A DNA stretch of 63,022 bases, the filler included, from Stramenopiles sp. TOSAG23-6 (lineage: Eukaryota): assembly GCA_900128565.1 (NCBI GenBank). It is 6 parts of 6 records of this genome, joined end to end, with 100 filler letters (N's around TTAATTAATTAA, not from the genome) between each part and the next. Parts side by side here need not be neighbours in the genome. Positions count along the whole stretch, not along the records: positions 42,128 to 52,543 come from LT636315.1; 5 more parts are not named here. The stretch is one strand, 5' to 3'. Numbering within the stretch: the stretch's first letter is position 1; every line of letters starts with the position of its first letter. Below are positions 4,002 to 52,643 of this stretch, one piece after another. The notes under the pieces are model-generated. The model was not told where the DNA came from, did not search any database, and saw only the letters and a program-made list of their open reading frames with translations. The translations under genes and the position numbers were made by a program.

Positions 4002-4389
4002 TATAAATAATATATTATTGAAAATCCTTTACGGTTTACAAAAAAATCGTACTACTAAAGAGGGGTACAGTATATAGTAGGCCACTGTAGAACTTGAACT
4101 GACTTGACACTGACTTGAAAAACACGAAATCTGGTCTTTTTTGGATATGATCTGAAGTTCTGAACCTGAACGCTCCTCTCTCTCTCGATAATAATGATCA
4201 AAATAATAAATATAGCAGTGTGTAAAGAAAAGTTACAGCAGAACGATATCGATAGTAGGGAGATCAAGCTGCATCGAAAGTATTCAGATTCAGTTTGCAT
4301 GGTGTGTTGATCAACACACTTCTATAGTCCGACATTTAATTTTCAGGTCTTACATAAAGCCTGAATCAAGTCGGAAAAAAGTCTACGGA

Positions 4390-5072: not shown

Positions 5073-5184
5073 GTACGTTTTATTTTTTTTCAATATTTTT
5101 TCAATTTTTATTTTTTTTTCATACGAAATTTCGTATGAAAAAAAAATAAAAATTGAAAAAATATTGAAAAAAAATAAAACGTAC

Positions 5185-5867: not shown

Positions 5868-6255
5868 TCCGTAGACTTTTTTCCGACTTGATTCAGGCTT
5901 TATGTAAGACCTGAAAATTAAATGTCGGACTATAGAAGTGTGTTGATCAACACACCATGCAAACTGAATCTGAATACTTTCGATGCAGCTTGATCTCCCT
6001 ACTATCGATATCGTTCTGCTGTAACTTTTCTTTACACACTGCTATATTTATTATTTTGATCATTATTATCGAGAGAGAGAGGAGCGTTCAGGTTCAGAAC
6101 TTCAGATCATATCCAAAAAAGACCAGATTTCGTGTTTTTCAAGTCAGTGTCAAGTCAGTTCAAGTTCTACAGTGGCCTACTATATACTGTACCCCTCTTT
6201 AGTAGTACGATTTTTTTGTAAACCGTAAAGGATTTTCAATAATATATTATTTATA

Positions 6256-9120
6256 ATGAAAAGTTGTATAAACCAAACGTGCGTCATATTATTCTTATTA
6301 TGTATGCCAAAGTTCAATGTGGATGCAGCTAGCCACGCCAATACTATGCATGCAATGGATTATCGTAGAAAAGTTGCACATGGTGAAACCCTTGTCCGAT
6401 GGGCTAAGCAAGTTGTAAACGAATATGAATATTTTACAGAAAACGGTGACAAATATCCCACGGGGCGTAAAAAACACTACTACTCTCCGCTTACAAGTGC
6501 TATAATTAACGAAAGTCGTCACAAGAAGTTGAAGGAGTTTCTGAGTTCGTGGGAATCGTTTAAGGAACTCTGCATACAAATTGTTCCTGTTCCAGATTGC
6601 TATGACCGCATTTCTCACGGCGTTCTTTCTTACGAAGCATTCTTCAATGACCTTTTTGTCAAATTTGAAGAAGAAGCTGAAATACAGGCGTCTATTTTTC
6701 ATGAAGAAGAAGTAGAGGCTGATAAAAACTTGAAAGAAGCTCACGAAAAAATTATGAACGCCTATCCCGATGCCACGAGTGCTCTTTTACTTGAACAGTT
6801 TGAAGCTGCGAAATCTGCTCGTCTAAAGATTTTTTATAGACTTTCCGAGTGGATGAATAATTGCTCTTTTCCTCTTATTCATAGTGAAACGCTTTTTACA
6901 TATTGTCATACATATGTGGTGCGTCTTGAGGATGTATACCCTGGATCCGACGTCCATTTGTGGATTACCACGAGAACTTTTGAGGCTCAAGTAGATGACT
7001 CAACTCATGAAGAGGGTAGTTTGGAATATGTATTGAAAGAGCTCAAAAGAATCTATCATCTTCCTGGGATTTCTGCAAATAAAGAGCCAGCAGTTCACAT
7101 TTATGAACGTGCAAGCAAAGATATACAAGCTAATGAACAAGTTGCATTGACTGCCCTCCAAAGATATCCAACTGGCCCATTCTACGGGTTGATTCCACAA
7201 AGTTTGAAATCGGATAAAGCATTTGTATATAAAGCTGCATCTATGGGAGAAATTGTTTTCAAGGGTTTGGGGAGAATGAGAAGAAATCGAAAATCTCAAT
7301 TATATAACGTCCCTGCAATGATGAACCTCCCTGCAGTGATGGTTAATGTCAGTATGTATCCAGAAGCCTACCGATTCGTTGCAGCAGACTTGAAACGGGA
7401 AGGTGGTAAGAGACTTGCAAAAAAAGCTTTTGGCGCACATTCTTCAAATGATGCCTTTTTTAGATGGATTCCTAATGAGTTAAAAGATATTGAAATGATT
7501 CTTCGTCTACTATTTCAAGGAGGAGTCACTTACACTGATCGAATATTTGAACGTGATATAGCTCTTGTTATGAAACATCTACTGAGAAATCTACAGGATG
7601 AACGGAAAAAGCAGAAATTTTTCCTTGATAAGGAAATCGCAGAGAAAATAGAATTAAAAGCTATAACCAAAAATGAAGCAAGCAAGCGACTTAGTGATTT
7701 CAATAGACTCTGGGAAAAGAAAGCTCATGAACACACTATTAAAATACGCAACAAAATTCAAATGGTGAGGACTTTATTGAAACGAGATCGAAATCAAAAA
7801 TTGAGGATTCCTCGTGGTGGTATATCGATTTCATATATTCGGGAAAAGCAGGACAAAGTAACACAACAACTTGCTGGAAAAATACTTGAAAAACAAGCTC
7901 TTTTAGTAGCGGAACAACGCTTGCTATTCGCAAGATTAATGTATCAAGATGAAGATTCCGAGATATATCATCATCTTCGTATAGAGCCAGACCATTTGAT
8001 ACCTTCTTTTTTATCAATATTGAAATTCGAAAATATCTTCTTGGAAAATATGTCCTTGCAAGCGGAAGAAACGCACAAACCTAATTCGAAATTACGATGG
8101 CCAAATATCATCAAATATTTGACGTGTGATCAAAACATTGTAGAAAAAGATGTCGATGAGTTAATTAAGCTGCATAAGAAACCTCAACAAGATGACTCCG
8201 CTACTGAATCTTTACCTCAACAAGATGACTCCGCTACTGAATATTTATACATTCAACGTAATGATGGCAGATATACATATGTGCTGCCTCGCACTTTTAA
8301 TGGTAATAAGCGGATGTTAGATGGTATTACCGATGATATTCCTGGTCTTGATTGCTCGACGGAACTAGAAAATGCAGCTTCTGACCTTCACAGACAATCG
8401 CAAATAACCATTGATTTTTCACGCAAGAGAGATGATGCTATTCTAAACGGTTACCCCCTATCTACTTATCATGCTGCACTTGTCACTGCTTCTGAATTGG
8501 AACAAACTTATTATGATATCGTATGTGACATAATAAATGAACGAGAATTGAAGAAAAGAGCACATCAAGCTCGTGTTGATGCTTCCCATTTAAGAGTTCT
8601 AAGCTCACAAATAAGCTCACGAACCTTCCTGATGCCTGCAATGGTACTTCAACTTGGAAATACTACAGGAGAGTTAAGCAGTTTATCTTCAGCAAGTCTT
8701 GCAAGAGCAGATGCTTACAACTGTTTTGCGAATGAACTTCGTCTTCGTATAGAAACGCCATTCGCAAAGGAAAGAATTGAATATTGGAATTTACTTGGTC
8801 GGCAATATGTCGAAAAATCAAAGGCGTTTTTTGACGAGGTACAGCACCATGGTTCAAATTATCAATCGTGTGAACGTCAAATGCAGGAGCTCTTGGCTTA
8901 TCTGGAACACCACGCTTTAGCATATGGTCTGACAATCAGAGATTCGCCTAACCCTACTAACCCTGAAACAACAGATTCGCCTAACCCTACTAACCCTGAA
9001 ACAACAGATTCGCCTAACCCTAACCCAGAAACAACAGATTTTCGATCTTTAAAACATTCTTTAGAAGGAGAAAGCGCTGAAGATGTAGCAAAAGTGTCTA
9101 AGAAACCTCGAAATTCATAG
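6256..9120 (+). CDS. Mirror copy of the 954-aa protein
   Basis: Translation identical to 1137..4001. Confidence 0.7.
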   Translation: MKSCINQTCVILFLLCMPKFNVDAASHANTMHAMDYRRKVAHGETLVRWAKQVVNEYEYFTENGDKYPTGRKKHYYSPLTSAIINESRHKKLKEFLSSWESFKELCIQIVPVPDCYDRISHGVLSYEAFFNDLFVKFEEEAEIQASIFHEEEVEADKNLKEAHEKIMNAYPDATSALLLEQFEAAKSARLKIFYRLSEWMNNCSFPLIHSETLFTYCHTYVVRLEDVYPGSDVHLWITTRTFEAQVDDSTHEEGSLEYVLKELKRIYHLPGISANKEPAVHIYERASKDIQANEQVALTALQRYPTGPFYGLIPQSLKSDKAFVYKAASMGEIVFKGLGRMRRNRKSQLYNVPAMMNLPAVMVNVSMYPEAYRFVAADLKREGGKRLAKKAFGAHSSNDAFFRWIPNELKDIEMILRLLFQGGVTYTDRIFERDIALVMKHLLRNLQDERKKQKFFLDKEIAEKIELKAITKNEASKRLSDFNRLWEKKAHEHTIKIRNKIQMVRTLLKRDRNQKLRIPRGGISISYIREKQDKVTQQLAGKILEKQALLVAEQRLLFARLMYQDEDSEIYHHLRIEPDHLIPSFLSILKFENIFLENMSLQAEETHKPNSKLRWPNIIKYLTCDQNIVEKDVDELIKLHKKPQQDDSATESLPQQDDSATEYLYIQRNDGRYTYVLPRTFNGNKRMLDGITDDIPGLDCSTELENAASDLHRQSQITIDFSRKRDDAILNGYPLSTYHAALVTASELEQTYYDIVCDIINERELKKRAHQARVDASHLRVLSSQISSRTFLMPAMVLQLGNTTGELSSLSSASLARADAYNCFANELRLRIETPFAKERIEYWNLLGRQYVEKSKAFFDEVQHHGSNYQSCERQMQELLAYLEHHALAYGLTIRDSPNPTNPETTDSPNPTNPETTDSPNPNPETTDFRSLKHSLEGESAEDVAKVSKKPRNS

Positions 9121-9535
9121 GTATACATCCATACATCCTTTTTGATTTGTCTCTTTTGTTTTATTTTTCTCAAAATTGAAATAAAAACAAGTGATCAAAA
9201 TCCAACAACTAACATTTAACATTTAACCCACACAACTGGAGATAAATTAGGGTTTGGATTATTTTTTTGTCTTTCCTATTTGATAAAAAATATAAATTGT
9301 ATACCTAACAAAAAAAAAGATTTTTTTTTTTTCAAAATATATTTTTTTCATCAAGATATTTTTTCATACGAAATTTTGTACCTAACAAATTTTTTTTTCA
9401 AAATTCTCTGTACATCATAGATGTAATACTTATTATTATTATTATATATAATTTATTGTCCAATAATATATATGATAGTTATACAGCTCTAAAGCTCTAT
9501 CATAATTCAAATTTGCAAAAAACAAAAATTGAAAA

Positions 9536-10305
9536 TTACATATCAAATTGTGTTATAAGTTGTTCTCTCGCCCTTAGTCGTCTCGCGCCAATTGAAGTGG
9601 GAGGACCTTTTAAAAATGCTTTGAAATCATGTATTTTGGAAAAATATGTCAAAAAAAAATCTAAAAAAAATCGTTAGGTACAAAATTCCGTACGAAAAAT
9701 AAATTCNNNNNNNNNNNNNNNNNNNNNNNNNNNNNNNNNNNNNNNNNNNNNNNNNNNNNNNNNNNNNNNNNNNNNNNNNNNNNNNNNNNNNNNNNNNNNN
9801 NNNNNNNNNNNNNNNNNNNNNNNNNNNNNNNNNNNNNAAAAAAAAAAAAAAAAATTTTATGGGAAAAAATTTTAAAAAAAAAAAAAAAAAAAGTCGATTT
9901 TTTTTTTACCGGAAAAAAAAAAAAATAAAAAATACATGTATGGTGTTATACTCAAGTGCACTTGGATTTTGATTTTCATAATTTTTGGAATATACGGTAT
10001 TGTATGTGTTTTGCATTTGTGTTTGTGTTTGGTTTTGATTGTTGTCAAGTTTCATTGGCATCGATACCGATGATGGATGTGTAGCAACTTTTAATGGATT
10101 TCGACCAGTAAATATATTGTAAGAAAATATTTTCAAAAAAAATTGTTAGGTACAAAATTTCGTATGAAAAAATATCTTGATGAAAAAAATAAAACATACA
10201 TACGAAAGTTCGTTTCTCATTAACCAGTGGTAGTAATAACTTCCTAATGACAGTAAAATGTTCATCGCGGACTTGGGTAAAATTAACCTTTTCAAGTCGC
10301 ATACC
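9536..10305 (-). CDS. Mirror copy of the 138-721 gene, spanning the N gap at 9707-9837
   Basis: Reverse complement of 138-721. Confidence 0.55.
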
Positions 10306-10442
10306 ATGTATTTTGGAAAAATATTTTAAAATTTTTTTTTACCAAAAAAAAAAAAAAATTTGTTAGGTACAAAATTTTTTGAAAAAAATAAATTCGATTT
10401 TTTTTTTTTTTTTCGGTTAAAAAAAAAAAAAAAAAAAAAAAA

Positions 10443-10542
10443 NNNNNNNNNNNNNNNNNNNNNNNNNNNNNNNNNNNNNNNNNNNNTTAATTAATTAANN
10501 NNNNNNNNNNNNNNNNNNNNNNNNNNNNNNNNNNNNNNNNNN
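10443..10542. other. Artificial contig linker
   Basis: 100-nt N run with central six-frame-stop TTAATTAATTAA. Confidence 0.98.
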
Positions 10543-11869: not shown

Positions 11870-14800
11870 ATGTCGAGGGAAAATTCACTGCATGAATATC
11901 GACGGCAGTCTCACAATCCAAACGGCAAGAGATCTATAAATTCTGCAGATAGTATCATCAATAACCGCTATATGATGGATATTTCTAATAGAAGCAACCA
12001 CGAAACTACACCTCCTTCAAGAGTGCGAAACTTCAATGCAGGAGTTACAAGCACGCAGTCGGATAGACAAAACGACCCTTCTGGTTCTCTGTCAAATCTG
12101 ATGCACTCTATTAGCGGAGCTGTTGGTGGATCAGCCACGTTTCATCTTCCAATTCAAAATACTAGAGTCCCAGAATATACACCAGGTTCACGTTTCCCTC
12201 AAACACCAGGGTCAGCTTTAAACGCAACCCTAGGCAATTTGAACCTTGGTACCGATGTCCCAACCTCGTTATTACCTATCAATCGTATAAAGAAAAAACA
12301 GTCTGTACATACTGTTTTAACAAGCAAGCCTCTCACCATTACGTATGGACATGAAATCAGCTTACGCTGCGGTGTCGAACGTGGTTTTCTCGGAGCAAAT
12401 GACAATGGTTCTTTAATAGTGTCTGGAACCGGAAATAATGCCGACGCCGAAATATTTACTCTTGTAAATATTCATTTAAGAAGTGATACAGGACCAGTTC
12501 GATATGGAGACTCTATTGCATTATGTAGTCACTCTTGTGGTGTTGGGGAAGGCAAATTTCTCGCTTGTGAAACTAATATCACTGATATTTCAAAATTACG
12601 TATTCCAGGAGGGGATCGCAAGAAAGCGTTAACTACAAAGTCTGGACCTGCTCTAAATCGCACTTCATTTGGATCTGCTGAAAAGTGGACTATATTGAGT
12701 GCAAGTACTCCTGGGCTAGACAGAAATTCCAAAACAAAAAATAGTGTAGTCTGTGCTGGAGATCGAGTAATCCTTCGTTGTATCCGTGGAACTTTTCTTT
12801 CTTCGTCCTCAATATCACAAAATCAACAAAACCAAAATATGCAGACGCCTATTCCGACTCTGACACCAAAATCAACATCCGCATCATGGATTATCACAAA
12901 AGGAAGGACTCCATGGATGCCTGATTGGTCGCGAACACGACTTTTTCTCACTGGTGATTTTCTTTCCTGTCCATCGATAAAAGATACTCAAACAAAATGT
13001 AGTGCTCCTGACCTAAATGATCATCCTTTGGAATTACAGGAACATATTATTATAGAAGATTTGCTATATACAATGGTAGGGATTGAAGGTCGCTATATAC
13101 GTATAATTGATACACCAAATATCTCTACCATGTCTCATTCTACTGAAATTACATTTTCTTTGGATAGTAATGTAATGGATGCTTCATTAGGGTTCTTAGT
13201 AAAACGCTTCTTACCTCTTTGTAATCATTATGCTTGGCTAGAACGTTTTGTTACCCGACATATGGGATATGAATTTGGAAGAACGGCTCATGCATTTTGC
13301 GCAGCTGTGAAACAACTCTTACGGGAATATGTACGTTTTCAAAATTTAATTTTCGAATTTTTTTTTGTACCAAATTTTGTACCTAACGAATTTTTACTAA
13401 AAATAATATTTTTCCAAAATACATACCTTACTAGTCACTCAACTAGAACACAAATACAGAATGTCTCAACTCAGTGTACAAAAACTTTGGTTTTATGTAC
13501 AGAATTCTTTGCATTTAATGCAATCATTGAAAAAAGTATGTATAGAAGCAGAGCATGAAGTGGGAGGAGCTCTTCTCAATGCGATCAACCGTGTGGCTAA
13601 ATTAGGAGGTAATGCAAATGCACAGCAGTTATTCCATTTTCTCACTAAAAAATCAGCCGCCCCATATTTACGAATGTTGGAACAATGGATCTATCGTGGT
13701 GTTGTAAATGATAATCACTCAGAGTTTATGATATCTGAAAATCGTCAATTGTCTAAAGAGCGACTAGCAGATGATTATAATGCACATTACTGGGATAAAC
13801 GTTGTACAATCTGTGATCATCAAGTACCATGGTTTTTAAAGCCTTATACCGCGAAGATTTTTACAACTGGAAAATATTTAAATGTCATTCGAGAATGTGG
13901 CCGAGCGATCGATTGTCCATTGATTACAATAGATTTTGTGTCAGCTCATAGTGGGTATAGCAAGATTATTGATGATGCAAACAAATTTGCTAGTCGAACT
14001 TTATTGGATATGTTACTTCAAGATGCGAAATTGATGGATCATTTAGCATCTTTACGACTCTTCTTTTTTCAGGCCAAGGGTGATGTTTTTGTTCATTTTA
14101 TGAATATAGCTTCTTCAGAATTGGATAAAAATTTTGTTGACATTGATATTGGAAAATTAGAATCATTGTTAAATGTTGCAATATGTGATACAACAATGGA
14201 TACTAATGCTGATCATATAACTTGTACCTTGGAACCTCTAAAATTATTTCATCTTCTAGAGGCAGTACATACTACATCTACTCAAGGTAGCTCCATTCCA
14301 CGTGGTCCAGGTGTTGACGCTCGAGATGCGGCAGTTGCAGCTCTTCGAAGTGCCCAAATGCATCAAAATAACTCTGTAAAAGGTATAGATAGCTTTTCTT
14401 TGGATTATCGTGTAGAATGGCCTTTATCGTTGGTCATTTCCCGACAAACAATTATCAAATACCAGATTTTATTCCGACATTTGTTTTTTTGTAAATATGT
14501 AGAGTGTCAATTATGTGAAGCGTGGGTACATCAACATACTGCTAAAGAGCTAAGTGTACAAGTCGCTATGAGAGTCAGTTATTGCTTGCGTCAAAGAATG
14601 CTCCATTTTGTTCAAAATTTAGTGTACTATGTTACAGTTGAAGTTTTAGAACCTCGTTGGCATGAAATGAAACAGAAATTACGCAAGGCTTCAACAGTTG
14701 ATGAAGTATTATCGTACCACAATGATTTTCTTGATTGCTGCTTAAAGGAAAGTTTGCTGACAAATCCTGTTTTAATTCGTTTATTGACTAAATTAATGAC

Positions 14801-15368
14801 AACATGTCTCCTTTTTTCGAACAAAGTGAAAAATTTCTATGCTACTTCTTCACTTCAATCAGATAAGGAGTCTCGCGTTTCTGCGGTTCAATCAAATGAT
14901 ACTTATCGTCGATGTGTTACAGATGACTTTGAGACAGCTGAACGCAAGCGCATTGTAAGAGAAGCTCGCAGAGCGAGAGGTGGAGTTTCAAAAGGTTCTC
15001 AGTCTTCTAAGTATTATGAAGAAGCTGGTGGCGAAAGAAATTTTGGAGCTGCAACAAGGAAAGCTGGAAACAACGTTGAAAAAAGAAGAGCTCGGCGAGG
15101 GTCTCTTGATCTCAGACGAACACGCATTGAAGTTCAATCTGCACATATCCGTCAACACGCTGAAGGTCCAGCATATCGCAGAATGTTGTCTGGTTTTGGA
15201 GGAAACTTCGATGCCCTATTAATGTCATTTATGGCTGCTTTGCAAGATGAACACCATGTTGAATATCATATGCATTTAGCTAATGTTTTTACGCGTCTTG
15301 ATTTTAATAAATTTTATGCGAATAGACACAATGAAGCAAAAAGGAATCTATCTCGTGAATGTTCATAA
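11870..15368 (+). CDS. TUBGCP2: Gamma-tubulin complex component 2 (Spc97/GCP2); exons 11870-13330, 13425-15368
   Basis: IIEDLLYTMVGIEGRYI, TTGKYLNVIRECG, VEWPLSLVIS, KYQILFRHLFFCKYVE. Confidence 0.92.
13331..13424 (+). other. Non-canonical GT-AT intron in GCP2
   Basis: TAT|GTACGT..GTACCTAAC..CCAAAATACAT|ACC; restores LLREY/TLLVTQLEH. The interval contains no AG. Confidence 0.9.
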
Positions 15369-31505: not shown

Positions 31506-31605
31506 NNNNNNNNNNNNNNNNNNNNNNNNNNNNNNNNNNNNNNNNNNNNTTAATTAATTAANNNNNNNNNNNNNNNNNNNNNNNNNNNNNNNNNNNNNNN
31601 NNNNN
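31506..31605. other. Artificial contig linker
   Basis: N run with TTAATTAATTAA. Confidence 0.98.
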
Positions 31606-37234: not shown

Positions 37235-39019
<1,785 letters not shown>

Positions 39020-39282
39020 ACAATAATTTTTTTTTGCGAATATATTTTGTTTCTTGAAAGAATAAGCTATCAATTTTTATAGTTGTTTAGGATAAAAAAA
39101 AAATTACTAAACTGGGACAGGTTTGTAGTTTTGTAAATAAATCTGTTATTATTAATTTGTTATTATGAATACTATTATACTTTTTTTTTCATTTTTTAAT
39201 TTATTTTTATATAATTGTCGCAATGTAGAAGTATACGTATTATTGTTTATACTGTACAATAAATATAGAAAAAAGAGAAATA

Positions 39283-41978
39283 TTACATTTCTACTACAGT
39301 TTCCTCCTGAGTTTGCCATTTGCCTTCATTGATTTCAGCAACTGCTGTTTCTACGTTAGAATTATCTGGTAAAATTTCAACAGGTTCGCCTTCATTGATT
39401 TCAGCATTTGCTGTTTCTACATTAGAATTATCTGGTAAAATATCAACAGGTTCGCTGCTTCCCTCATGATGATCCACATTCCAACCATCGCCATCCTCTT
39501 CTTCATTTAATTGAGTTAGGAATGCACTCGAAGTATTTTTCTTGACATCTTTTATAGCTTCTTCTGTAGTCTCTTCCTCTGTCTTTGTAATATCATTTTC
39601 ACCTTCTTCTGTGGTCTCTTCATTTGGTTTTGTGTCTTCTTTTGCAGCTTCTTCTGTAGCTTGCTTTTCAGCCAATTGCAACTCGGCAGCCTCTTTTGCA
39701 GCTTCTTCTATAGCTTGCTTTTCAGCCAACTCAGCAGCTTCTTTTGCAGCTTCTTCTGCGGCTTGCTTTTCAGCTTCTTGTGCTGCTTCTGCTTCTTCTG
39801 CCAGTTTTTCAGCTTCTTGAGTAGCTTCTTCTGCAGCCTCTACGCCTGCACGGGCTGCACTTAGTGCTTCATCAATGGCATTTGTTATAATGGCTCTCGC
39901 TGCAGCTTTTGCTTTCTGAATAGCCGCAGCTTGTGCAGCAACTACTGCAGCTGCTATAGCTGCATTACGAAGTCTAACAGCTTCTTTGAGTTTCTTAATT
40001 TTTTTTACAGCTTCTCCAATTTCAGCTCGCTGTGTCTCGGAAACTGCTTTTAATATGTCAGTTCTTCTAACTAGTTCAAGAGTCTCCGCTTCCGTTTTCT
40101 CTATCCTTTCATCTATTTTTTCTATGCGAGAGTTCAGAATTGAGCCCTCTTTATCTATTACGTATTCGGTACTCGTTAGAGAAGACTTCATTCGTTTAAT
40201 TTCCCTTGGGGTTTCTGGAACTTTGCCAACCCATTCTGGGGTAACACCACATTTACGAAGTTTAAGCTCTGCGGCAAGTTTCCGACATGAAGCGTCAAGT
40301 CGTACTGATTTCATTTGAATTTCTAATCTCTCTTTTCTTTCGCGCCGTGAGTGTTTAGTATCATTACATTTTTGCATTTCTTCAAACTCATTACGCAGTT
40401 CATTCAATTCACTTAAAAGCTTTTCATATTCTGTTCTCTCTGTGGAAGGTTTTATTTCCATATCAATGGTACACTCATGAACATGTTTATATCTTTCAGC
40501 TATTGCTAAGGATTCTTCTTTTAGCATTCCATAAACTTTTCCAAGTTCAGCAACTTGATCTATTTTTTGCTGGCTTCGATCTCTCCAACTCATGTGAGCG
40601 ATGGTGTTGAAGTCAATGCTCTCACTAGGTGAATCTTCTATTTTTTCTGCTTGTACTTTTATCTGTTTTGGTTTTGTTTTCATCCTTTTTTGCTTTGGAG
40701 CCTTTACTATAGATGATACTGCATTTTGTTTCTGGTAATCCTTTACAAGTTGAATCAAGTGTTTTTTCTTCCCTTTAGTAGATAAACCAAACTCCTTACA
40801 ATAAGTTTTTAAAACCGCAACTTTCATTTTTTTTAATTCCTTATGAGTAAAAGCTACTTCTTTCTTGTATACCTGCTTTAGCTTGGACACTTTTTTTGTG
40901 GTACGTTTATCTGACTTTGATTGAGGGGCTTTAGTTGAATTTGATTGATTGACAAACATTTTATCATTTTTAACTTTTTTGCGCAATCGTTTGGAAGAGC
41001 CTATTTGACCGTCAAGTAATGTATTGTACCGCTTCTCTTGTTCCTCAAGTTCTTTTGCTTGTGCATTAACTAGACGAAGTTTATGTATTGTAAAAAATAT
41101 TTTTTTTTATTTTTTTTAGAAAAAAAATTCGTTAGAAGATATTTTACAAAATTTAGATGAGGTAAAAAGAATAAATTTGAAATTCATGATGAAAATGTAC
41201 ATTATCGGTTGTCTGTAATTTTCTTTTCATCGTGGCTACCAAATCGCCCTGATTGTCTTGTTTCCTTTGCTGAAACTCTCGCATTTGATCTTTCACCATG
41301 TATTGTGAAAAAATAATCGAAATTTGTTAGGTACAAAATTTGGTACAAAAAAAAACTAAATTTGAAATTTAGAATGAAAACGAACATCGCCCGGTCAACT
41401 TCTCCATTCAACTTACTACAACTTTTTCTAAGTTGCGCATTCATTTGTACGAGAGTCTCAATTTGAAGCATTTCATGTGAAAAATATTTCAAAATTGTAA
41501 ATTCGTTAGGTACAAAACCTTTGCATTGTCCATGAAGAAAACATCGTCTATTACGGAATTTCGTACGAAAAAAACAATGTCACAAAAAAAATGTAGGTAA
41601 AAAATGGATGATGAAAACGTATATTTTTTTTCGTATGATTTTAAGACTTCTCTCTTCAACTTTACCCAAGAGAAACGCCCGTCGGTATTCATGAGTTCCT
41701 TCAACCAATGGATTTCCATGTACTGTGAAAAACAATTCAAACATTTGAAATTCGTTAGGTACGAAATGTAATACGAAAAAAAAAAATTAAAAAGTCAATT
41801 TTGAAAACACGAAAAAACAAATTAAAATTAAATTTTGAAAACGTACGTGGCGATCGGCAAGTCTACCATCTTGTGTTCTATGCACTGGGCTACTACTGCT
41901 TCGAAGCTTGCTACCGTTGAATTCCTTTATTGATTTTATTGATTCAGTGCTATTTTCCTTTTCAGGAGTTGATATTAT
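39283..41978 (-). CDS. SAP-domain coiled-coil protein, 5'-truncated; exons 41978-41847, 41717-41623, 41469-41386, 41297-41201, 41082-39283
   Basis: LKKMKVAVLKTYCKEFGLSTKGKKKHLI (SAP). Removing four family introns gives one open frame. Confidence 0.8.
41083..41200 (-). other. Non-canonical GT-AT intron
   Basis: AAT|GTACATTTTCATCATGAAT..CTAAC..TACAATACAT|AAA. Confidence 0.8.
41298..41385 (-). other. Non-canonical GT-AT intron
   Basis: AT|GTTCGT..GTACCAAATTTTGTACCTAAC..CACAATACAT|G. Confidence 0.82.
41470..41622 (-). other. Non-canonical AT-AT intron
   Basis: AT|ATACGT..GTACCTAAC..CACATGAAAT|G; keeps frame IRKK-M-LQIE. Confidence 0.72.
41718..41846 (-). other. Non-canonical GT-AT intron
   Basis: CAC|GTACGT..CGTACCTAAC..CACAGTACAT|GGA. 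Confidence 0.82.
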
Positions 41979-42027: not shown

Positions 42028-42127
42028 NNNNNNNNNNNNNNNNNNNNNNNNNNNNNNNNNNNNNNNNNNNNTTAATTAATTAANNNNNNNNNNNNNNNNN
42101 NNNNNNNNNNNNNNNNNNNNNNNNNNN
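42028..42127. other. Artificial contig linker
   Basis: N run with TTAATTAATTAA. Confidence 0.98.
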
Positions 42128-42180
42128 TGTACCTAACAAATTTTAGTTTTTTTTTTTTGAAATATTTTTCCAAAATACAT

Positions 42181-43130
42181 GTCATGGTGAGAATAGTGTG
42201 ATCAATGACGATGGTATTTGTATATGCGCTAAAGGATATACCGGTAACCCACCAACATGGGAATCATCAGCTTGGTCGACGACTTCATGCATTCCAACTA
42301 ATCCACAACCACATGACTGTATCGATAGTACTATGGTCGAAGACGATCATGGTACCTGTCAATGCAATGATGGATATATCGGTAATCTAACACCATCGCC
42401 ACCACCTGAAATTCTAGCAGAACTAGCAGAACCAGCAGAACCAGCAGAACCACCCAAGTGGATAGGTATATGTATTGAAAAAACGAAACTTTGTAGAGGA
42501 GAAGGTATGGAAATGGGTACTGATGGTTGTGTCTGTAAAGATGGATATGAAGGTAATCCTGCATGGGAGAATGGGGAGTGGACAGGCTCTTGTATAGATA
42601 AAGTGAAGAATTGTTCAGCAGATGGCATGACTATCGAACAACATGGGTGTGTTTGTGAAGAGGGATATAAAGGTGATCATGCGCCTTCATATGTTGATGG
42701 AAAGTGGACAGGGAATTGTATAAATTCAACGAGTATTTGTGAAGGAGACTTTATGGAAATGCGTGGAAATGGTTGTTTTTGTAGAGATGGATATTCTGGA
42801 ACCCCAAAATGGGATTCTTCTGCAAAAGAATGGAATTTTGTTCCACCTTCACCCACATGTCAAGATAGACAATCAACTTGTGATGGAAATAGAACTGCAG
42901 GTCCTGGTACATGTGAATGTAAAGATGGGTATAGTGGAACACCAAAATGGGATTATCCGACAGATTCTTCGGAAAAACAATGGATGGGTACATGTGTAGA
43001 TGAACAATCAACGTGTAATGGAAATAGAACTGCAGGTCCTGGTACATGTGTATGTAATGTTGGTTATAGTGGAACACCAAGTTTTGATGGTTCTTCCTGG
43101 GGTGATGATACATGTCTTAAGGTCAATTGA
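42181..43130 (+). CDS. Last exon of a Cys-rich EGF-like repeat protein
   Basis: Repeated CxCxxGYxGxPxW..WxGxC units; preceded by a partial family intron ending AAAATACAT at 42180. Confidence 0.8.
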
Positions 43131-43334
43131 TATTAATAGTTATTATTCTACAAATACGTAGTCAAGTAATAAAAATGGTGTCTTTTTCGAATTTTTTTTC
43201 ATTCATCGGCGTTTTTACGTTTTTTTCATCATGATCCGTTACTTTTTGTGTTCACCCGATATAGCTACTACTACGACAAACGCTGTAAGTCTTCACACAC
43301 ACTTGTAAACAACTGTAGCACAACAATACTTGTA

Positions 43335-44833
43335 ATGTCACAACGTAATCCAATCGGCATATTATATACAAATGATATAAATTCGTCTTCTCCTGGTTCT
43401 CCTGAGGAGTCTGATGATTTTGTTGATCCTGTGCTGCCAAGTGGAGCAAATGATTTATATTTTGAAAATATAGAGGGTAACTATTGGAAAAATAATAAAC
43501 GTTTACATCCATACTCGAATGGTTGTAAAAAATACACATATAGTGTAGATGATCTTATACCGAAACTTGATACCAACGCTCGTAATGAAGCTACACATAT
43601 TGTCAAGGTTGATTTAGAGAGGCGATTCAGCAAGGAACAAAAGAAGAAGAAACATGTCCGTTGTATCGATTGTTGTACGTTTCATTTTTTTTTTTCAACA
43701 AAAAAATCGATTTTTTTTTCGTACGAAATTTTGTACCTAACAAATTGTACAAAAAAAACAAAATTTTTCACAGTATATGTTGTGCATTTTTTCATCGAGT
43801 GGAATTAGAAGTGGCGACGTTTTTTATATTCATTAGTACGACAATGCAATTATATTTTTTCGGATTGGTTGCGTTGCCAACAGTAGATGCAACTCAAATA
43901 CTTCCAACTACAATTCATCAAATTGGTGTTCTGTACGTTTTTTTTTCTCTTGAATTTTTTTTTCATACAAAATTTCATACCTAACGATTTTTTTTACCAA
44001 AATTTTTTTTTTTTTCACAATATATGGCTATATTGGTCATGTTAGTTATATTCGTTGCATGGATTTTGATAAAAAATGCTAGCGTTGCTTGTCATTTACG
44101 GTTTTGTTTTATTTCAACACTTATTATAACATCAATACAAATATATTTCGCTTTTATGGTAATTAAGGATACACACAATGCATGTATGTCTTCAAAAATT
44201 GACTTTTTTTGTTTTTTCAAAAAAAATTTCATTAAAAACATTTCATACGAAATTTTGTACCTAACGGATTTCAAACGTATTTGAATAAAAAACAATTCAC
44301 AATACATCATCTTCTGCAAGTCTTTTTCAATCGAACGAAAAGTTAATAGATGTATACGCATCAACAGAAAATACTTTGGAACATTTAAAAATTACACCGG
44401 AAGTATTAGACACATGTCCTGCTAGTGGTAGAGAAATCAAATGTGGTTGTATGTTGTATAAAAATATATTTTTTTTTTTCGGATTTTTTTTTTGTTTTTN
44501 GGATTTTGTTTTTTCAATTTTCTTTTTATTGAAATATATTTTTGAAATACATGCGATCCAAGTCAATATGATATAGCAGTAGCTATTGTCGCAGATTCCG
44601 GGGTATCAAATCGAACAAAAAATGATATCCAATGGGCTGGTTCTTGTATTGGTTTTGAGGCTCATTGCGAATCATCAGAAATAATTGGAAATTTTTCAGA
44701 AGATTGTAAAAAAAACACAAAAAATGGAGAATTTTGTTTAACATGTAAAAATGGATATGAAGGAGGATCTCTTTTATGTAATAATGATAAGCAATGGAGT
44801 ATACACAAATTTTGTGAAAATATAAATGTTTGA
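43335..44833 (+). CDS. Multi-pass membrane protein with Cys-rich C-terminus; exons 43335-43674, 43779-43932, 44026-44183, 44308-44448, 44553-44833
   Basis: Four family introns join five segments in frame; about three hydrophobic helices. Confidence 0.72.
43675..43778 (+). other. Non-canonical GT-AT intron (register-diagnostic)
   Basis: TT|GTACGT..CACAGTATAT|GT; sliding 2 nt upstream creates TGA. Confidence 0.82.
43933..44025 (+). other. Non-canonical GT-AT intron
   Basis: CT|GTACGT..ATACCTAAC..CACAATATAT|G. Confidence 0.8.
44184..44307 (+). other. Non-canonical GT-AT intron
   Basis: AT|GTATGT..GTACCTAAC..CACAATACAT|CA. Confidence 0.82.
44449..44552 (+). other. Non-canonical GT-AT intron; core motif absent, contains an N
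   Basis: TT|GTATGT..GAAATACAT|GC; opens a final exon of over 90 codons. Confidence 0.7.
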
Positions 44834-45098
44834 TAAAATTGATAAATTGGTAGCGTCCCTGGGGGAGTGTTATATATAGCCTATTCTGGAAATCATTCTC
44901 AAAACGCCAAAAATCGAATTAGAAACGAAAGGCGTCGAAAGGATATCTTTGACAAAAACACGAAAACAGAAGAAAAACGTCAAAAAAAATACCAGTCAGC
45001 TGACCAAGGAAACTCAGACTTACCTTGTGGTATCAATTCTACCATTTGTAATTTGTTTGTATATTGGAAACAAAGTATATTTGCGACTATTTTTCAAA

Positions 45099-45892
45099 AT
45101 GAATTATTCATGTATTATACTGCTATTAGTAGTGACAATAATAAGAGAAAGTAAAGGAGCTACAAGGGCAGAACAAGCACTAAAGCTAAAAGACAGTACC
45201 GCTTCAGTGCCTTCACATTTAACTAAACGTGAATTAGGTAATTTCTCTGCTGTTTCACGTACAATGCACAAGGCAGGTGATCGTGAATTTAACAACCGCG
45301 CAAAGTATATATTTGAAGGGGTGAAAGGACTGTTTGGTGAAAATGAAGATATTGGTTCTGTCAATAAAGGAGACACTGAGACATCAACCCAATGGCTACG
45401 CCGTGTAGAAGGTAGTCATTATCATCGTAGGGTATTGGAAAGAAAGGCTTTAATTGTATTGTATGATAATACTGATGGGATTCATTGGGAAAGGAGTGAA
45501 AATTGGAAAACAGATTCAGATATTTGTGACTGGTATGGAGTTACGTGTACTAATGGAAGTGTTACTAAATTGGCATTGAATCGCAACAACCTATCTGGTT
45601 CAATTCCGAAAGAAATTGGTCTACTAAGAAATCTTGATATGTTAGTCTTGGATGATAACAAACTAACTGGTGCAATACCAACGGAAATTGGTCAACTAAC
45701 AAATCTCGAAGGATTGTACTTGGATGACAACGAACTATCTGGTTCAATACCAAAGGAAATTTTTCAACTAACAAAGCTTCAATATTTGTTCTTGTATAGC
45801 AACAAACTATCTGGTTCAATTCCCCAAATGAAATTGGTCAACTAAGAAATCTCGTGGATTTGAGATTGGATGAAAACAACAGACTCATTTGA
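45099..45892 (+). CDS. Secreted leucine-rich-repeat protein with an apparent frameshift near 45825
   Basis: Signal peptide; ERKALIVLYDNTDG..W..CDWYGVTC cap; LxxNxLSGSIPxEIG repeats; the last repeat continues in another frame. Confidence 0.8.
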
Positions 45893-46624
45893 GAGTCTGA
45901 CTTGGTTTAAATGAGAGAGTCCAACATATCTTAAAAGTAAATGGCAGTCTAAATTGGAGTTCATTTGAAGTAAAAATGTCTAAAATCACAAAATCCCTTG
46001 TGCTTATATATATATATAGTAAGGTTTCCCGAATCTTGGTTGTTATGATTCTTGTTGATTATTTATTTATTATTGTGTAATAAATAATTCCTTATTAAAA
46101 ATGTAATTTTTAGTTTTTAGTCGTTTTTAGTTTTGTTTTGATTATATGATGAATTAATTTTGGAAAAAATATGTTACTTCTTGCATGATTTATTGAATGA
46201 ACTTGTTATTAATGAATATAGTAGTTATGTAAACACTTTAAATTGATAAAAAAAATTATTCATTTTGAGCATATTTAGCCATTATTATCGCTAGAATCGC
46301 TAGAATGATGCAAGATTCAATAATTTTTATTCGATTTTATTAATGGTTAGGGTTAGGGTTAGGGCAAAGGTAGGTCATTTTGCACCGGCAGATGCTCTTT
46401 GCTCGCGCTCTACGTAAATACAAAAAAAGAGGGATCACAACTCTGATTCTGAAAAGACAAAATTTATGTATTATTGAGTGAGTTTTCATTTGCACAGCTT
46501 CATTTACATTACACAATTTTAGTTGATTGATAGTGCAAGAGCTACAATCTAGTAGTATTGTATTGATCATTTGAAACAAAAAACGTAAAACAGTTTTCAA
46601 AACGACTTCTGCAAATCTATCCAT

Positions 46625-49600
46625 ATGACTTCGCGGGTGGTTGTTTCACCAGAAAGCGACACGAGTAAAGTACCAACTACATATGCTAATCAATCATTAA
46701 AGGCACATGCAAAAATTTTGTTTACACTTTCAAATCTCTCTCGAAAGATTTTAAAAAAGACTCGCGTTATAGCACCCAACAATGCAAAAAAAGGACGAAG
46801 CTCTGTCCGCCTCAAAGTTGTTTGGAATAAAGGAGAAATACCAAATGTCCCGTCAATTTATTCGAGTAATCTCATTCAATATGATAGAATATCTAAATGT
46901 CATGTACCATATATGCAACAGCGTGTAAATAAACGAAAGTATCCGCAAAAGGGTAGAAGAAATTCTCCATCTAAAAAGGCTAAAAAAGCAGTTAACGTTG
47001 TAAACAATATGAACGTAAATATCCTTCAGTATAATAATATTCCCCAGCATCATAGTACTTATGCATATAATATGTATCCACATGATATGAGATACAACGG
47101 AAATTTGCCATACATGCCAACTGCAGCTAATTCTACAACACACCCGCATCTTAATGGTACTGCGAATATGTTTAACAATGAAAATGCACTTTTACAACAA
47201 CAAAATAGACACACCAATAGAGTTAATAACAAAATGTATAATACCCCAGTACATAATAATATGAAACAATATAAGTATATACCACATCACAACATTAACA
47301 ATACGTACCCTATTGTACCTGCAGCAGACGGTAATTTTGTACTTAACCACAAACAAAATCTACAAAATCTACAAAATGCAGAACAACAAAACCTACAAAA
47401 ACTCAAAAAAAGTTTTGAAAACTCTCATCCTACAAAAGTCGATGATCCTTATACAGTTCATGGACTTTCACCTGATGATGTTTTGTTTGCATGTACAAAG
47501 AAGCGAAGAGAACGAATTCGATTACGTCGTAAGAGAGCTTTACGAGCTACACGAAATAAGCCTAAAAAACTACAAAAAACATCGAATGCTTCAACAATTG
47601 GAGGCAAGGGCAATAGAAGAGGTACAGCAGCTGAAAGAAGAGCACGAGCACAAGCAGAAGAACGCGTGGTTCTTGCGGAAGCTAACAAAAAGTTAAAGAC
47701 AATACAAAACGAGTTGGCTGTGTATAATGTACGTTTTTTATTATTTCGTGTTTTTTTCTTTATTTTTTTCGATTATTTTGTTTTTTTGAATGTTTACATT
47801 TTTATAATTTCACAAGTAACAAAATTCTTACACTGTACATTGCAAATGACAAAAATAAATATATGTTTCTCATTATATGTTATCCGTGATACCGAACAAG
47901 AATTAAATATTAGAAAAGCATTACTAAAAGCGTATGAATCTTTAGTAATTTCAATGAAAAATATTTTTGAAATGGAAGAAAAAAATAGAAAATTAGCTTT
48001 ACACACGAAATCACAGAAAGTATTACATCTTATTGAACAATGTCGTCTTTTATATACAAAAGAGTATACAGAAGCAAATAATGGTTCACTTAGTGTAGCT
48101 GAAGAGCATTTGTTAGTGACTAATCACGTGAAACAGTTAAAAACGATACAACAACAAAAAAAAAAGTGTAAAAAAATGTTTGAAGATGTACTCCAAGAGT
48201 TGAGTGATTCATCAAATACACGAAATCTTTTACATTTAAAAATGGAAAGAAAAAAATATCTCAGTGAAAAATATACAATAATGTGTTTGTTTTCATTTCA
48301 AATGTTTATTTCAAATGTTTATTTCAAATGTTTATTTCAAATGTATTTTTTTTTTTTTTTTTTTCATACAACATTTCATACCTAACAAAAAAAATCAAAA
48401 AAAAATATTTTCCAAATATACATGTCAACAATTACAAACATGGGAATCTAAAACAGAACAAGATCTTTTGGATATTCAAAATAATTTAAAAAACAATAAA
48501 AAAGTATTGCATTCTTCATCAAACGACATGAATGATGAACAAAATTCACAACATTCAAAAAATTCAAAAAATTCAAAAAATATGGATTCGCAATTGTCTA
48601 CTTCTACAGAAACTACAAAAACTACAAAAACTCAAACAACGGAAAGCAAAATTTTTGTTCATTCTTTAGAAGATTTTCGTAATTTAACAAATCTTGCGGC
48701 AGTTGATACTTCTGCTAATTCAAGCACACCTCGAGGTACAATTTTTCTACGTAAATCGAAACAATCTTATGAAAAGAATGAAGAAAATATTCAAAATGAT
48801 GAAACATCAAAATCAATAAAAAATAATGGAGTTGAAATTCAAGTAGGAAAATTTGTAGTGAAAACAGAAAGTCTACACTCAGATGAAAGGGTACAAAATA
48901 ACAATATTTCGTCTTTGAAATCATCTGAACAAACAAATTCGTCTTTGAAAGCATTTGAACAACGCGAAATTGGTCTTTCAGAACGATTACGAGAAAATGG
49001 ATTACCACTAAAACATCGAAATGCTTTATTACGTGATAGCATTCTTCGTGAAGGATCAAAAATTATGTCTGGATTTCGTGCATTGGAGGCAGAGCGATTG
49101 CTTGCCATACAACGTGAAAAACGAAAATCAAAAGATGAATTTTTTGAGGCATCAAAACGACAACAAATGTCAATTTATAGACATTTAAAAATGCAAGAAA
49201 AAAAAAAAGAACATTTAAAAGCGGTACGTTTCCATCTTTTTTTTTTTTTTTTTAACATTTTTTTAACATTTTTTTAAAACTTTTTCATCATTCATTTGTA
49301 AAATATCTGATATTTTTTTGTCTGTACACTAACGAATTTTCAGATTTTATCTATTTTTTTACAAAACATGTACAAAAAAAAATGTTAGAACAATTAAAAC
49401 TTCGACAAAGTACAGAAATTACAAAAAAAATGAAATCTTTACAAAATGAAACAGCTGATGTCAAAAAAACACATCTTGAACAATTACAAGCTACACATCA
49501 ACAACATATAAATGAATTATTAAGAATTCAAAAACAACAATGTGATACATTAGATATAAAACAACGTAAAGAAATTGAATTAAATATAAACAATAACAAG

Positions 49601-51057
49601 ATATTGCCAGTGTTACAACCAGTGCTGAGTTCAACATCTAAACGTGTTGAAGGTTCTGTTTCTATGAAGAATACTGCTAATAATAATCAAAATAATAATA
49701 ATATGAATAATAATGATATTCTCAATGATATTTCAGCTAGTACTAGTAGTAGTCAAAATAATACTTATAATAACATGAATAATAATGATATTCTCAATGA
49801 TATTTCAGCTAGTACTTTTAGTAGTCAAAATAATAATAACATGAATAATAATGATATTCTCAATGATATTACAGCTAGTACTACATTTTATTCTTCTATA
49901 AAAGTACCTGAAATTCCATTAGATAAATTAATAATTACAAAAGAAGAAACGATTAAAGAGAGAAAAGAACGTAAAAGAAAAAGAAAAATGCTAGTAGAAG
50001 CTCAAATTTTAAATATTGAATATCCACATCTAAGGCAATGTGAAAAAGATGCCAAAGAGGCTAAACAAAGCGCATTAGGATTCATTTCTGATATACTACC
50101 AGATGTATTTGATGTAGAAAAGGATACGAAAAATACAACAATTGTATCAAGTGACACGAAATCTGTTGATGAATCTCAAATTATTCAAAATGATACACCC
50201 GAAATATCATCAAATATTGTACATACAGTTACCACGTTTAATACTATGAACAACAACAGTAGTAGTACTAGTAGTAGTAGTAGTGAAAGTTCGAATATAA
50301 CTACACTTGAAAATTCTGAAAAAAAATTGAATAATGAGAAAATTGTTCCAATAACGAAACGATTTGAAATGTTTTTACCTATTTGTGTTGATGAAAATTG
50401 TTCAAAACCACGGTATAAACAAAATATGCACTGTAAAGATCATTTAACAGAATGTCCAATTTTGGAGTGTAAATATATCGGTTGTACTAAACAAGCACAA
50501 GGAAGGACTCCTTTTTGTATTTCTCATGGTGGAATATGTTATATTTTTTTCAAAATATGAAATTTTTTTTTTCATAACCCTAATACCTGACAAAATCTAT
50601 TTTTTATACTATATTGTAGACAATATATGGTAAACGATGTATCGTTAAAGGATGTACCAAATCAGCTCAAGGAAAAACACGAAAATGTATATTGCATGGA
50701 GGAGGGAAACGATGTGCTTTTGAAGGTTGTACAAAATCTGCAAGAGGGAGGACAAAATTTTGTGTTGGACATGGAGGTGGCAAACGTTGTTTTTTTGAAG
50801 GATGTACAAAATCAGCTAGAGGTCGATCTAATTTTTGTGTGAGTCATGGGGGAGGAAAACGATGTTCTTCTCAAGGTTGTTCAAAATCTGCGCAAGGCTG
50901 TTCAAATTTTTGTAAAGCACACGGTGGCGGAAGACGGTGTAAATATCCAAATTGTCGTAGAACTGGAAAAGGATCTGAGGAGTATTGTACCATTCATGGT
51001 ACTCAAATATGTCTTTTATTGAATGAAATGAAAGAATCGACATCAGCAACTGTTTGA
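46625..51057 (+). CDS. Large low-complexity/coiled-coil protein with C-terminal WRKY19-like zinc-finger repeats; exons 46625-47728, 47879-48284, 48424-49223, 49370-50533, 50629-51057
   Basis: Repeated GGGKRCxxxGCxKSAxGxxxFCxxH; four AT-ending introns join the ORFs. Confidence 0.78.
47729..47878 (+). other. Diverged GT-AT intron (in frame, 150 nt)
   Basis: AAT|GTACGT..CATTATAT|GTT; read-through is an F-rich stretch inside a coiled coil. Confidence 0.6.
48285..48423 (+). other. GT-AT intron with an internal 14-bp tandem repeat
   Basis: GT|GTTTGT..(TTTCAAATGTTTAT)n..ATACCTAAC..AATATACAT|GT. Confidence 0.75.
49224..49369 (+). other. Non-canonical GT-AT intron
   Basis: GCG|GTACGT..ACACTAAC..ACAAAACAT|GTA; the upstream TTCAG is out of frame. 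Confidence 0.78.
50534..50628 (+). other. Non-canonical AT-AT intron (cannot slide)
   Basis: GGA|ATATGT..TACCTGAC..CAATATAT|GGT; restores HGG/GKRC as in the downstream repeats. Confidence 0.85.
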
Positions 51058-51310
51058 TTGTACTATACTCACATATGTCTTTTATTGAATGAAATGAAAG
51101 AATCGACACATTAGCAGGTTTTTGATTGTAGTACACTCACATATGTCTTTTATTGAATGAAATGAAAGAATCGACATTAGCAGGTTTTTGATTGTAGTAT
51201 ACTCAAATATGTTTTTAATTGAATGAATTGAAAGAATCGACATTAGCAGGTTTTTGATTGTAGTACCATGTATGGTACTCAAATATGTTATTGAATGAAA
51301 TGAAAGATTT
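51000..51310. repeat. ~56-bp tandem repeat (about 5 units) overlapping the gene end
   Basis: ACTCAxATATGTCTTTTATTGAATGAAATGAAAGAATCGACA recurs. Confidence 0.85.
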
Positions 51311-51498
51311 TTTAAACAGCAATTGTTCACATTTATATTGAATAAATTTTGATGATTGCCATATTCCTTTGTCTCCTCGTTACACTTCCTGTTTATCTAT
51401 TGCAAGCTTCAATGTACATATCATGTAAATCATCAGCATTGGTTGCGGGAACATCAGCCGGTTTCAATGCGTACATTTGTTGCAATTGTATACATTTT

Positions 51499-52543
51499 TT
51501 ATTTCGCACCATGACGGAGAAATAGTGCAACTACTTTTTCATGACGAAACATTGTAGCAATATACAATGGGGACATTCCACACCCGTTAGGCTGATTGAC
51601 ATCAGCACCATTAGCGAGAAGTAATTCAACTACTTCTGTATGGCCTTTCGCTGAAGCATTATACAATGCGGTAAATCCATCATCATTCCTAGCCTGATTG
51701 ACATCAGCACCAGCAGCGAGAAGTAATTGAACTACTTCAAAATGACCCTTCCGTGAAGCAATATACAATGGGGTTTGTCCGTCTTCACCGGCCTGATCCA
51801 CAGCAGCACCTTTATCAAGTAGTAGCCCAACTACTCCTTCATGACCATTCTGTGAAGCAATCAACAATGGGGTAGCTCCGTCTTCATCAACTTGATTGAC
51901 TTTTGCACCTTTATCAAGGAGTAGCCCAACTACTCCTTCATGACCATTAAATGAAGCAATCAACAATGGGGTAGCTCCGTCTTCATCAACTTGATTGACT
52001 TTTGCACCTTTACCAAGAAGTAGTTCAACTATTCCTTCATAGCCATACTCTGAAGCAATATACAATGGGGGAAATCCGGTCAATGGTCCACTTGTCGCAA
52101 CCTGATTGACATTTGCACCTTTTTTGATAAGTAGTTCAACTACTTCTTCGTGACCATTCTGTGAAGCAATCAACAATGGCCTTAATTCGTTGTTAGCAGC
52201 CTGATTGACATCGGCACCCTTATCAAGAAGAAGTTGGACTACTTTTACATAACCATACTCTGAAGCAATCATCAATGGGGTAACTGCGAAGTTTTTTTCA
52301 GCCAGATTGACATCAGCACCTGCTTTAATAAGTTCTTTAACGACTTCAACATAACCATACTGTGAAGCAGCAAACAATGCGGTCGATCCATCTCTGCGCC
52401 CCTCATCAATATCAGCGCCAATCGCCAGTAAAACTTTAACCATCGCCACATTATTCATCTGTGCAGCTGAAAACAATGGATATTCGTCCTCTTCAAATGG
52501 GTGCTCTAGTTTCAACTCTTCTGTTTCGACATGATCAGTAAAG
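51499..52543 (-). CDS. Ankyrin-repeat protein, 5'-truncated
   Basis: About 10 repeats of TPLxIASxxGHxxVVxLLLxxGAxVN. Confidence 0.93.
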
Positions 52544-52643
52544 NNNNNNNNNNNNNNNNNNNNNNNNNNNNNNNNNNNNNNNNNNNNTTAATTAATTAAN
52601 NNNNNNNNNNNNNNNNNNNNNNNNNNNNNNNNNNNNNNNNNNN
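52544..52643. other. Artificial contig linker
   Basis: N run with TTAATTAATTAA. Confidence 0.98.

Follow-up and report, generated by a model that had tools for sequence, protein, structure and literature searches.

Few eukaryotic signals are as highly conserved as the GU...AG ends of introns, and in the known spliceosomes a change of the first G to A blocks exon ligation. U2-type AT-AC introns have a major-type donor that is normal but for an A at +1, partnered with C at -1, and in yeast the G1A defect is reportedly suppressed by a C as last base, the first and last intron bases being read as a pair at exon ligation. The minor, U12-type introns include rare AT-AT, AT-AA and GT-AT ends, with a consensus consisting of the donor /RTATCCTT and the branch site TCCTTAAC, located 10-15 nt from the 3' end.

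According to the available part of the report on the yeast post-catalytic structure (P complex), A(-2) pairs with the branch adenosine, a glutamine of Prp8 reads the pyrimidine at -3, and the Hoogsteen edge of G(-1) pairs with G(+1), a geometry which A(+1) with C(-1) could fit too (bioRxiv 10.1101/212811). In the tunicate Fritillaria borealis, 95% of the introns are non-GT/AG, a change that the available text of the preprint ties to duplicated U2AF subunits and snRNA methylation (bioRxiv 10.1101/2025.08.15.670264). The introners of Amoebophrya, as far as the accessible sections describe them, show no dominant dinucleotide pattern, and hairpins have been proposed to define their ends (PMC7789003). 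Curated introner surveys expected a 3' AG or AC, and families with unfamiliar ends were inspected or discarded, as stated in the available part of one of them (PMC12130899). In our full-text literature search, we found neither GT-AT nor AT-AT introns described as a class, whatever the organism, nor any mention of unusual introns for MAST-3; intron ends are not discussed in the main texts of those MAST genome papers that were searched by term.

The stretch of DNA analysed here, referred to as the window, comprises 63,022 nt including filler from Stramenopiles sp. TOSAG23-6 (GCA_900128565.1), with positions 42,128-52,543 derived from LT636315.1. The host lineage is a MAST-3 marine stramenopile. 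With a G+C content of 34%, the window is AT-rich eukaryotic DNA, and its other genes, among them DUF4116 and WRKY19-type zinc fingers, are in keeping with a stramenopile. The DNA is an amplified single-cell assembly with chimeras and many gaps. Positions 1-10443 form an inverted duplication centred near 5128, in which 5129-10256 is the mirror image of 1-5128 and 10043-10443 that of 1-400, an N gap lying between; it is most likely a whole-genome-amplification chimera of the single-cell assembly, and genes and introns inside it are counted double if the duplication is overlooked. Runs of N at 31506-31605, 42028-42127, 52544-52643 and 9707-9837 lie inside copies of the intron family described below, most of them with the TTAATTAATTAA linker, and it is apparently at this repeat that the assembly breaks. 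The whole window was scanned against Rfam and for tRNAs, with no matches.

A motif search of the window with the box TACCTAAC returned short elements by the dozen, nearly identical to each other, present on both strands and always located between open reading frames. Of these, 25 full copies were curated in a first pass and 26 finally, besides partial ones cut by gaps, and they are hosted by Kae1, GCP2, TIG, SAP, zinc-finger and other genes. For 21 of the 25 first-pass copies, a single phase provided long open frames on either side; the four exceptions were M1, which follows a short first exon, and P10, the placement of which is uncertain, P16 and M3, all three re-placed after inspection of the reading frames, P16 to 47729-47878 and the end of M3 to 41470 following a matrix scan and the family alignment. 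The copy at 47729-47878 (+) is open in the exon frame over its entire length and its 3' end is uncertain, 47840 having the better motif but lying out of frame and 47878 being in frame. As the copies were picked by family motifs, the uniformity of their ends is partly built in; reading frames and protein homologies provided tests of the ends that are independent of the motif choice.

All 26 curated introns belong to one family with the layout 5' GTAYGT, TACCTAAC branch box, T-tract and 3' YAT. In the MAFFT consensus, an exon ending in ..AT is followed by GTAYGTTTT.., an internal TTTTCGTACGAAATTTTGTACCTAAC, a T-tract and the end ..CACAATACAT or ..CCAAAATACAT, after which the next exon starts with G; T-rich tracts are visible in the family alignment. 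The first base is G in 23 of the 26 copies and A in the other 3, T follows at +2 without exception, A at +3 and G at +5 occur in 22 each and T at +6 in 24. At the acceptor, a pyrimidine (C or T) is present at -3 in 24/26, A at -2 in 25/26 and T at -1 in 26/26. Of the 26 introns, 19 are preceded by an exon ending in AT and 17 are followed by one beginning with G. A TACCTAAC-like box was recognised in 21 of the 25 first-pass copies, its end lying at a distance of 18-43 nt from the 3' end.

The donor is thus of the major (U2-type) form GTAYGT/GTRAGT, from which the A(+1) copies depart at +1 only, and the branch box has the major-type arrangement, with a TACTAAC-like sequence, a position about 18-50 nt upstream of the 3' end and a pyrimidine tract after it. 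The acceptor is not YAG, with T as last base in 26/26; A at -2 and a pyrimidine at -3, which the known mechanism needs, are kept, and only the last base departs from YAG. Many similar copies serve as introns of unrelated genes, as is typical of introners, and the ends are inverted repeats, since exon AT plus GTAT is the reverse complement of ATACAT, although the repeat measures only 6 bp and the putative target-site duplication 2 bp. Neither an empty site nor an autonomous element of the family was seen in the window. The family is probably a short, transposon-like "introner" that supplies its own putative splicing signals (donor GTAYGT, branch site TACCTAAC, T-tract, acceptor YAT), and it seems to be the dominant intron family of this genome. 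In independent DNA, an exact 19-base family motif retrieved three metagenome contigs, all of them unrelated chance matches, and no independent copy of the A(+1) loci was found.

Compared with the described systems, the family shares its introner origin and the genome-wide departure from GT-AG with known cases, and is distinct in its uniform YAT acceptor, its canonical donor and branch site, and either A or G at +1 in combination with U at -1. It resembles the U2-type AT-AC introns and the yeast suppression in the A(+1) within a normal major-type donor and in the reading of first and last bases as a pair; however, the partner of A(+1) there is C(-1), whereas the three A(+1) copies of the window have T, as do the 23 G(+1) copies, and the assignment of the three to the U2-type AT-AC class was rejected for this reason. 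U12-type introns are alike in having non-AG ends and a 5' AT, but a ATATCCTT-type donor is lacking here, the branch box of the three A(+1) copies ends 35-42 nt before the 3' end, and all 26 curated introns are concerned, not a rare class; ATACGT and ATATGT do not correspond to /RTATCCTT, and a U12-type assignment was therefore discarded as well. Fritillaria borealis, as described in the available text, differs from the present family in termini and lineage (bioRxiv 10.1101/2025.08.15.670264). Introners generally are similar in that short, almost identical elements of a single family serve as introns in a large number of unrelated genes, while the available parts of the surveys do not describe a YAT-ending family (PMC9860276; PMC12130899). 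The Amoebophrya introners, according to the accessible sections, likewise show transposon-like repeats, inverted-repeat ends, short direct repeats across their borders and non-canonical ends (PMC7789003); in contrast to them, the ends here are uniform (GT or AT ... AT), donor and branch site are strongly canonical, and the end helix is mostly weak. Table 1 provides an overview of the features discussed in the following.

Table 1. Positions of the introns, putative splicing signals and host genes in the window. AT...AT introns are candidates; a slash marks an exon junction.
Feature	Positions	Strand	Description
AT...AT intron, zinc-finger gene	50534-50628	+	95 nt, phase 0; starts ATATGT, ends ACAATATAT; WRKY19-type zinc-finger repeat protein
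Branch-site-like box TACCTGAC	50584-50591	+	Ends 37 nt before the 3' end, then T-rich tract
Upstream exon, zinc-finger gene	49370-50533	+	Ends ...FCISHGG; the final 22 residues match Pfam Zf_WRKY19, profile positions 4-24 of 24
Downstream last exon, zinc-finger gene	50629-51057	+	Starts GKRC; at least four more zinc-finger units, then stop; Zf_WRKY19 E=2e-36, 4 stretches
AT...AT intron, TIG-domain gene	4794-4892	+	99 nt, phase 2; starts ATACGT, ends CACAATACAT; gene of a secreted TIG-domain protein
Branch box TACCTAAC	4843-4850	+	Ends 42 nt before the 3' end of the 4794 intron
Second-arm repeat of the 4794 intron	5365-5463	-	Same copy
AT...AT intron, coiled-coil/SAP-domain gene	41470-41622	-	153 nt, phase 2; starts ATACGT, ends CACATGAAAT
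Branch box TACCTAAC	41505-41512	-	41622 intron; ends 35 nt before the 3' end
Kae1/OSGEP gene	37235-39020	+	Highly conserved; exons compared one by one with solved structures
Kae1 GT...AT introns	37646-37742, 37859-37947, 38108-38205, 38541-38688	+	Ends fixed by solved homologues
GCP2 (gamma-tubulin complex component 2) GT...AT intron	13331-13424	+	Junction REY/TLLVTQLEH

The ends of the G(+1) copies can be verified in conserved host genes. On chain 8k20_A, the Kae1 exons cover the residues up to 113, 114-151, 153-205, 206-228, 228-276 and 278-331, with residues 152 and 277 encoded by split codons, and on both 8k20_A and 6gwj_K they abut without gap or overlap across four introns. Since no residue is missing or extra, these four introns must be removed at exactly GT...AT. 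The second of them (37859-37947) contains an AG five bases before its end, which would result in a frameshift if combined with the family donor and in three additional residues if combined with the GT four bases in; neither product fits the Kae1 exon mapping, and this AG is therefore not used. In GCP2, the junction given in Table 1 is ungapped within 6 columns in 38/38 aligned homologues. Across the family, an in-frame, stop-free GT-AG alternative within about 15-20 bases is absent for 16 of the 26 introns. A register of AT...AC, obtained by sliding the borders by two where the exon ends in AT, was also considered and rejected, as it yields varied ends (AT-AA, AC-AC, AT-TC) in the copies whose upstream exon has another ending and HGDGKRC at 50534, whereas the GT register is uniform.

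An AG five to nine bases before the 3' end is also present in several other copies, so that the full list reads 37859-37947, 38861-38983, 43675-43778, 41846-41718 (-), 56886-56718 (-) and 50534-50628; proof by protein alignment that such an upstream AG (e.g. CACAG plus five bases) is skipped applies to 37859-37947 only. At Kae1 intron 4 (38273-38392, +), the solved homologues have a single Cys at the junction, which needs either removal as GT...GT with the end ATATGT or, with two extra residues, as GT...AT from 38277; this intron is a possible exception at acceptor position -2. For GCP2 (12101-15365, +), the EukProt model GSMAST32...931.1 (P0002) of a near-identical assembly reads REY/VLTQ, while 38/38 homologues support REY/TLLVTQ, and the model also drops internal pieces of the long GCP2 exon. 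This gene model was apparently made to comply with canonical splice sites. Identity between the two GCP2 sequences is 87% overall, a value lowered by the pieces that the public model skips, and 99.5% over 414 aligned residues. It is this match that places the window in MAST-3, in an assembly identical or very close to that of the public model.

The initial annotation had drawn attention to three copies that start with A in an otherwise normal donor and end in AT, and both the sequence and the family alignment bear this out. The sites read ATATGT at 50534 (+), ATACGT at 4794 (+) and ATACGT at 41622 (-), and a MAFFT alignment of the 26 copies, made without hints, placed the first A of all three in the G(+1) column of the other 23 and their 3' ends on the family ..AYAT. 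All three have a perfect TAYGT at +2 to +6 and are in frame, with open frames of 426/142 (50534), 192/108 (4794) and 54/88 (41622) codons. They are not chance hexamers but clear members of one intron family.

In the zinc-finger gene, 14 in-frame junctions can be formed near the family ends from GT, AT or GC at the 5' side and AT, AG or AC at the 3' side, 11 of them free of stops, and only the combination 50534/50628 gives HGGGKRC. This motif, which was said to fix the junction and to recur several times downstream, does both: in HGG-x-[KR][KR]C, the number of intervening residues is one in 197/197 occurrences from 74 homologues, and the spacing is also constant in the repeats of the same protein. 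The GT four bases into the intron (50538-50626) is in frame and stop-free and results in HGGIYGKRC, with IY added, and use of the AG nine bases before the end would give HGGTIYGKRC. The register 50533-50627 encodes the same protein product; the family alignment favours 50534-50628. A same-species, transcript-derived protein across the junction was not found, the end of the upstream exon being unmatched among proteins of 234-746 aa and the last exon having a best match of 62% identity among proteins of 78-249 aa. Two seawater metatranscriptome runs share just 0.09 and 0.05 of the words sampled from 43000-52000, a word content that says nothing on splicing.

The intron in the TIG-domain gene is present in both arms of the inverted duplication; the element at 5463-5365 (-) is consequently not independent, and one copy, not two, is counted. 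The intron is open in frame on read-through, so that its retention leaves the frame open and the read-through protein (4390-5070) could be used as a query against 1.84 billion representatives. Thirteen short homologues were aligned, ten of which span both sides of the junction ENCT/ICTELV. All ten read ENC[TS] followed directly by [VI]C.[ELV].., with a gap of 33 columns opposite the 33 read-through residues of the window. The product of the AT...AT junction has the same length as the homologues, in contrast to the other in-frame options, which lack one or three residues or have two in excess; an in-frame GT...AT option does not exist at this site. The only in-frame AT-AC option from the family donor, 4794-4901, was rejected because it loses three residues kept by 10/10 homologues. 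The best homologue, a complete protein of 254 aa on a contig of 948 nt, shows 69% identity over the matched stretches on both sides of the intron. The homologues P0212, P0217 and P0232 lose similarity or end immediately behind ENCT, where the 4794 intron is located, and are uninformative for the junction; they look like open reading frames read into a same-site intron of other organisms. As three homologues break off exactly there, the intron position may be older than the 4794 element.

The copy in the coiled-coil/SAP gene is the least certain of the three and is placed by family alignment, reading frame and codon usage. Its upstream exon has two open frames, of which the one required by the preceding GT...AT intron 41846-41718 scores +8.6 with the codon usage of the window and the other -3.0. 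The initial annotation names no 3' coordinate for this copy; an end at the nearest AT (41475) would shift the frame and produce a TGA, and the family-aligned end five bases on, at 41470, is in frame. An AT-AC intron in the other open frame, to which an end at 41475 had pointed, was discarded on the basis of the family alignment and codon usage. In-frame alternatives are 41624-41475 (AT...AT), 41618-41475 (GT...AT, with three more residues and IYE in place of M) and 41618-41457 (GT-AG).

Taken as sequence evidence, the three copies are probably ordinary introns of the family that acquired a G-to-A change at +1 and are still removed at the usual ends, which would make them AT...AT introns. In two of the three genes, those with the introns at 50534 and 4794, the conserved protein is obtained only by removal at exactly the AT...AT ends. 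The proposal that the first G of the donor is dispensable is accordingly upheld in so far as only +1 is changed and two of the three proteins need the exact AT...AT ends, and it is weakened at 41622, where in-frame alternatives including GT...AT exist. As to use of another GT donor, which would speak against it, no in-frame GT...AT is available at 4794, and at 50534 the GT option adds two residues to a spacing that never varies.

The yeast-like donor and branch box, the spacing of 18-43 nt in 21/25 copies, the pyrimidine at -3 and the A at -2 point to removal by the major spliceosome. In the mechanism that we propose, the last-base requirement of this lineage's enzyme would have shifted from G to U, and the contact between first and last base would then accept either purine at +1. 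Since a uridine lacks the Hoogsteen edge of a purine, its contact with +1 would have to differ from the known one or be absent, and tolerance of A(+1) would presumably follow from such an altered or absent contact. By analogy with the G(+1):G(-1) contact of the yeast P complex, it is reasonable to suppose that U at -1 makes A at +1 acceptable. More tentatively, and with the odds somewhat against so broad a reading, the major spliceosome of MAST-3 may have switched the last base from G to U in essentially all introns, so that +1 relaxed to a purine and AT...AT introns came to make up about a tenth; this would be the first natural genome-wide rewiring of the exon-ligation contact.

A first rival reading, which is unlikely, takes the A(+1) copies to be defective in splicing or spliced with low efficiency, as recent G-to-A mutations or alleles of the one amplified cell that disable or weaken the host gene. 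The available part of the yeast report states that mutating the invariant nucleotides impairs mRNA formation, in agreement with a G1A defect (bioRxiv 10.1101/212811), and read-through of the 4794 intron meets no stop codon. Such defects would mean, however, that 3 of 26 introns within 63 kb are dead in three unrelated genes, and the flanking exons are intact and conserved, as seen from Zf_WRKY19 (E=2e-36), the 69% identity around 4794 and the long open frames.

Removal from an inner donor, the GT at +5/+6 (ATAT/GT..., ATAC/GT...) combined with a shifted AT acceptor, would turn the three into true GT...AT introns with small protein insertions. The in-frame and stop-free options 50538-50626 and 41618-41475 agree with this reading, yet we regard it as quite improbable, because 4794 offers no such option, the IY insertion breaks the spacing that is invariant in 197/197 occurrences, and the inner donors GTTATA and GTTTTC lack the A at +3 and G at +5 of the family (22/26 each). 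The analogous GT at +5 of 37859-37947, together with the AG five bases upstream of its end, is moreover excluded by the Kae1 alignment.

Very doubtful is a definition of the ends by pairing, in which the inverted repeats (exon AT plus GTAT with ATACAT) determine removal and the identity of +1 is minor. The inverted-repeat ends themselves, an upstream exon AT in 19/26 that resembles a 2-bp target duplication, and a predicted terminal helix with a probability >0.5 in 8/26 copies are compatible with it. This probability is <0.05 in 12/26, however, among them every A(+1) copy and three of the four Kae1 introns whose ends are verified at the protein level, and the strict donor, branch box, T-tract and -3/-2 bases are kept, as spliceosomal recognition expects. 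A hairpin-defined non-conventional intron of the Amoebophrya or Euglena type was also rejected, predicted stable end pairing being confined to the 8 copies mentioned.

That the A at +1 is an amplification, sequencing or consensus error for a true G can hardly be the case: although the amplified single-cell assembly has an obvious chimera (1-10443) and many gaps, three errors at one and the same position of 26 introns would be needed, odds that are inferred and not measured, and the match of 99.5% over 414 residues to the protein of the related assembly indicates high base accuracy.

If the preferred reading of the three copies as AT...AT introns is true, introns that end in U and sometimes start with A in a free-living organism represent a natural experiment on the contact between first and last base. 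It would show which parts of the 3' site are kept, namely the pyrimidine at -3 and the A at -2, and which are changeable, and its cause is to be sought in the proteins and snRNAs of this lineage. The protein sets of these abundant ocean grazers are probably damaged where canonical sites were assumed, since the public GCP2 model misplaces a junction and drops exon pieces. Finally, a G at -6 is confined to copies with C at +4 (5/17, versus 0/9 of those with T at +4), a difference that is statistically not strong; the pattern fits the inverted-repeat ends and may be a subfamily marker only.
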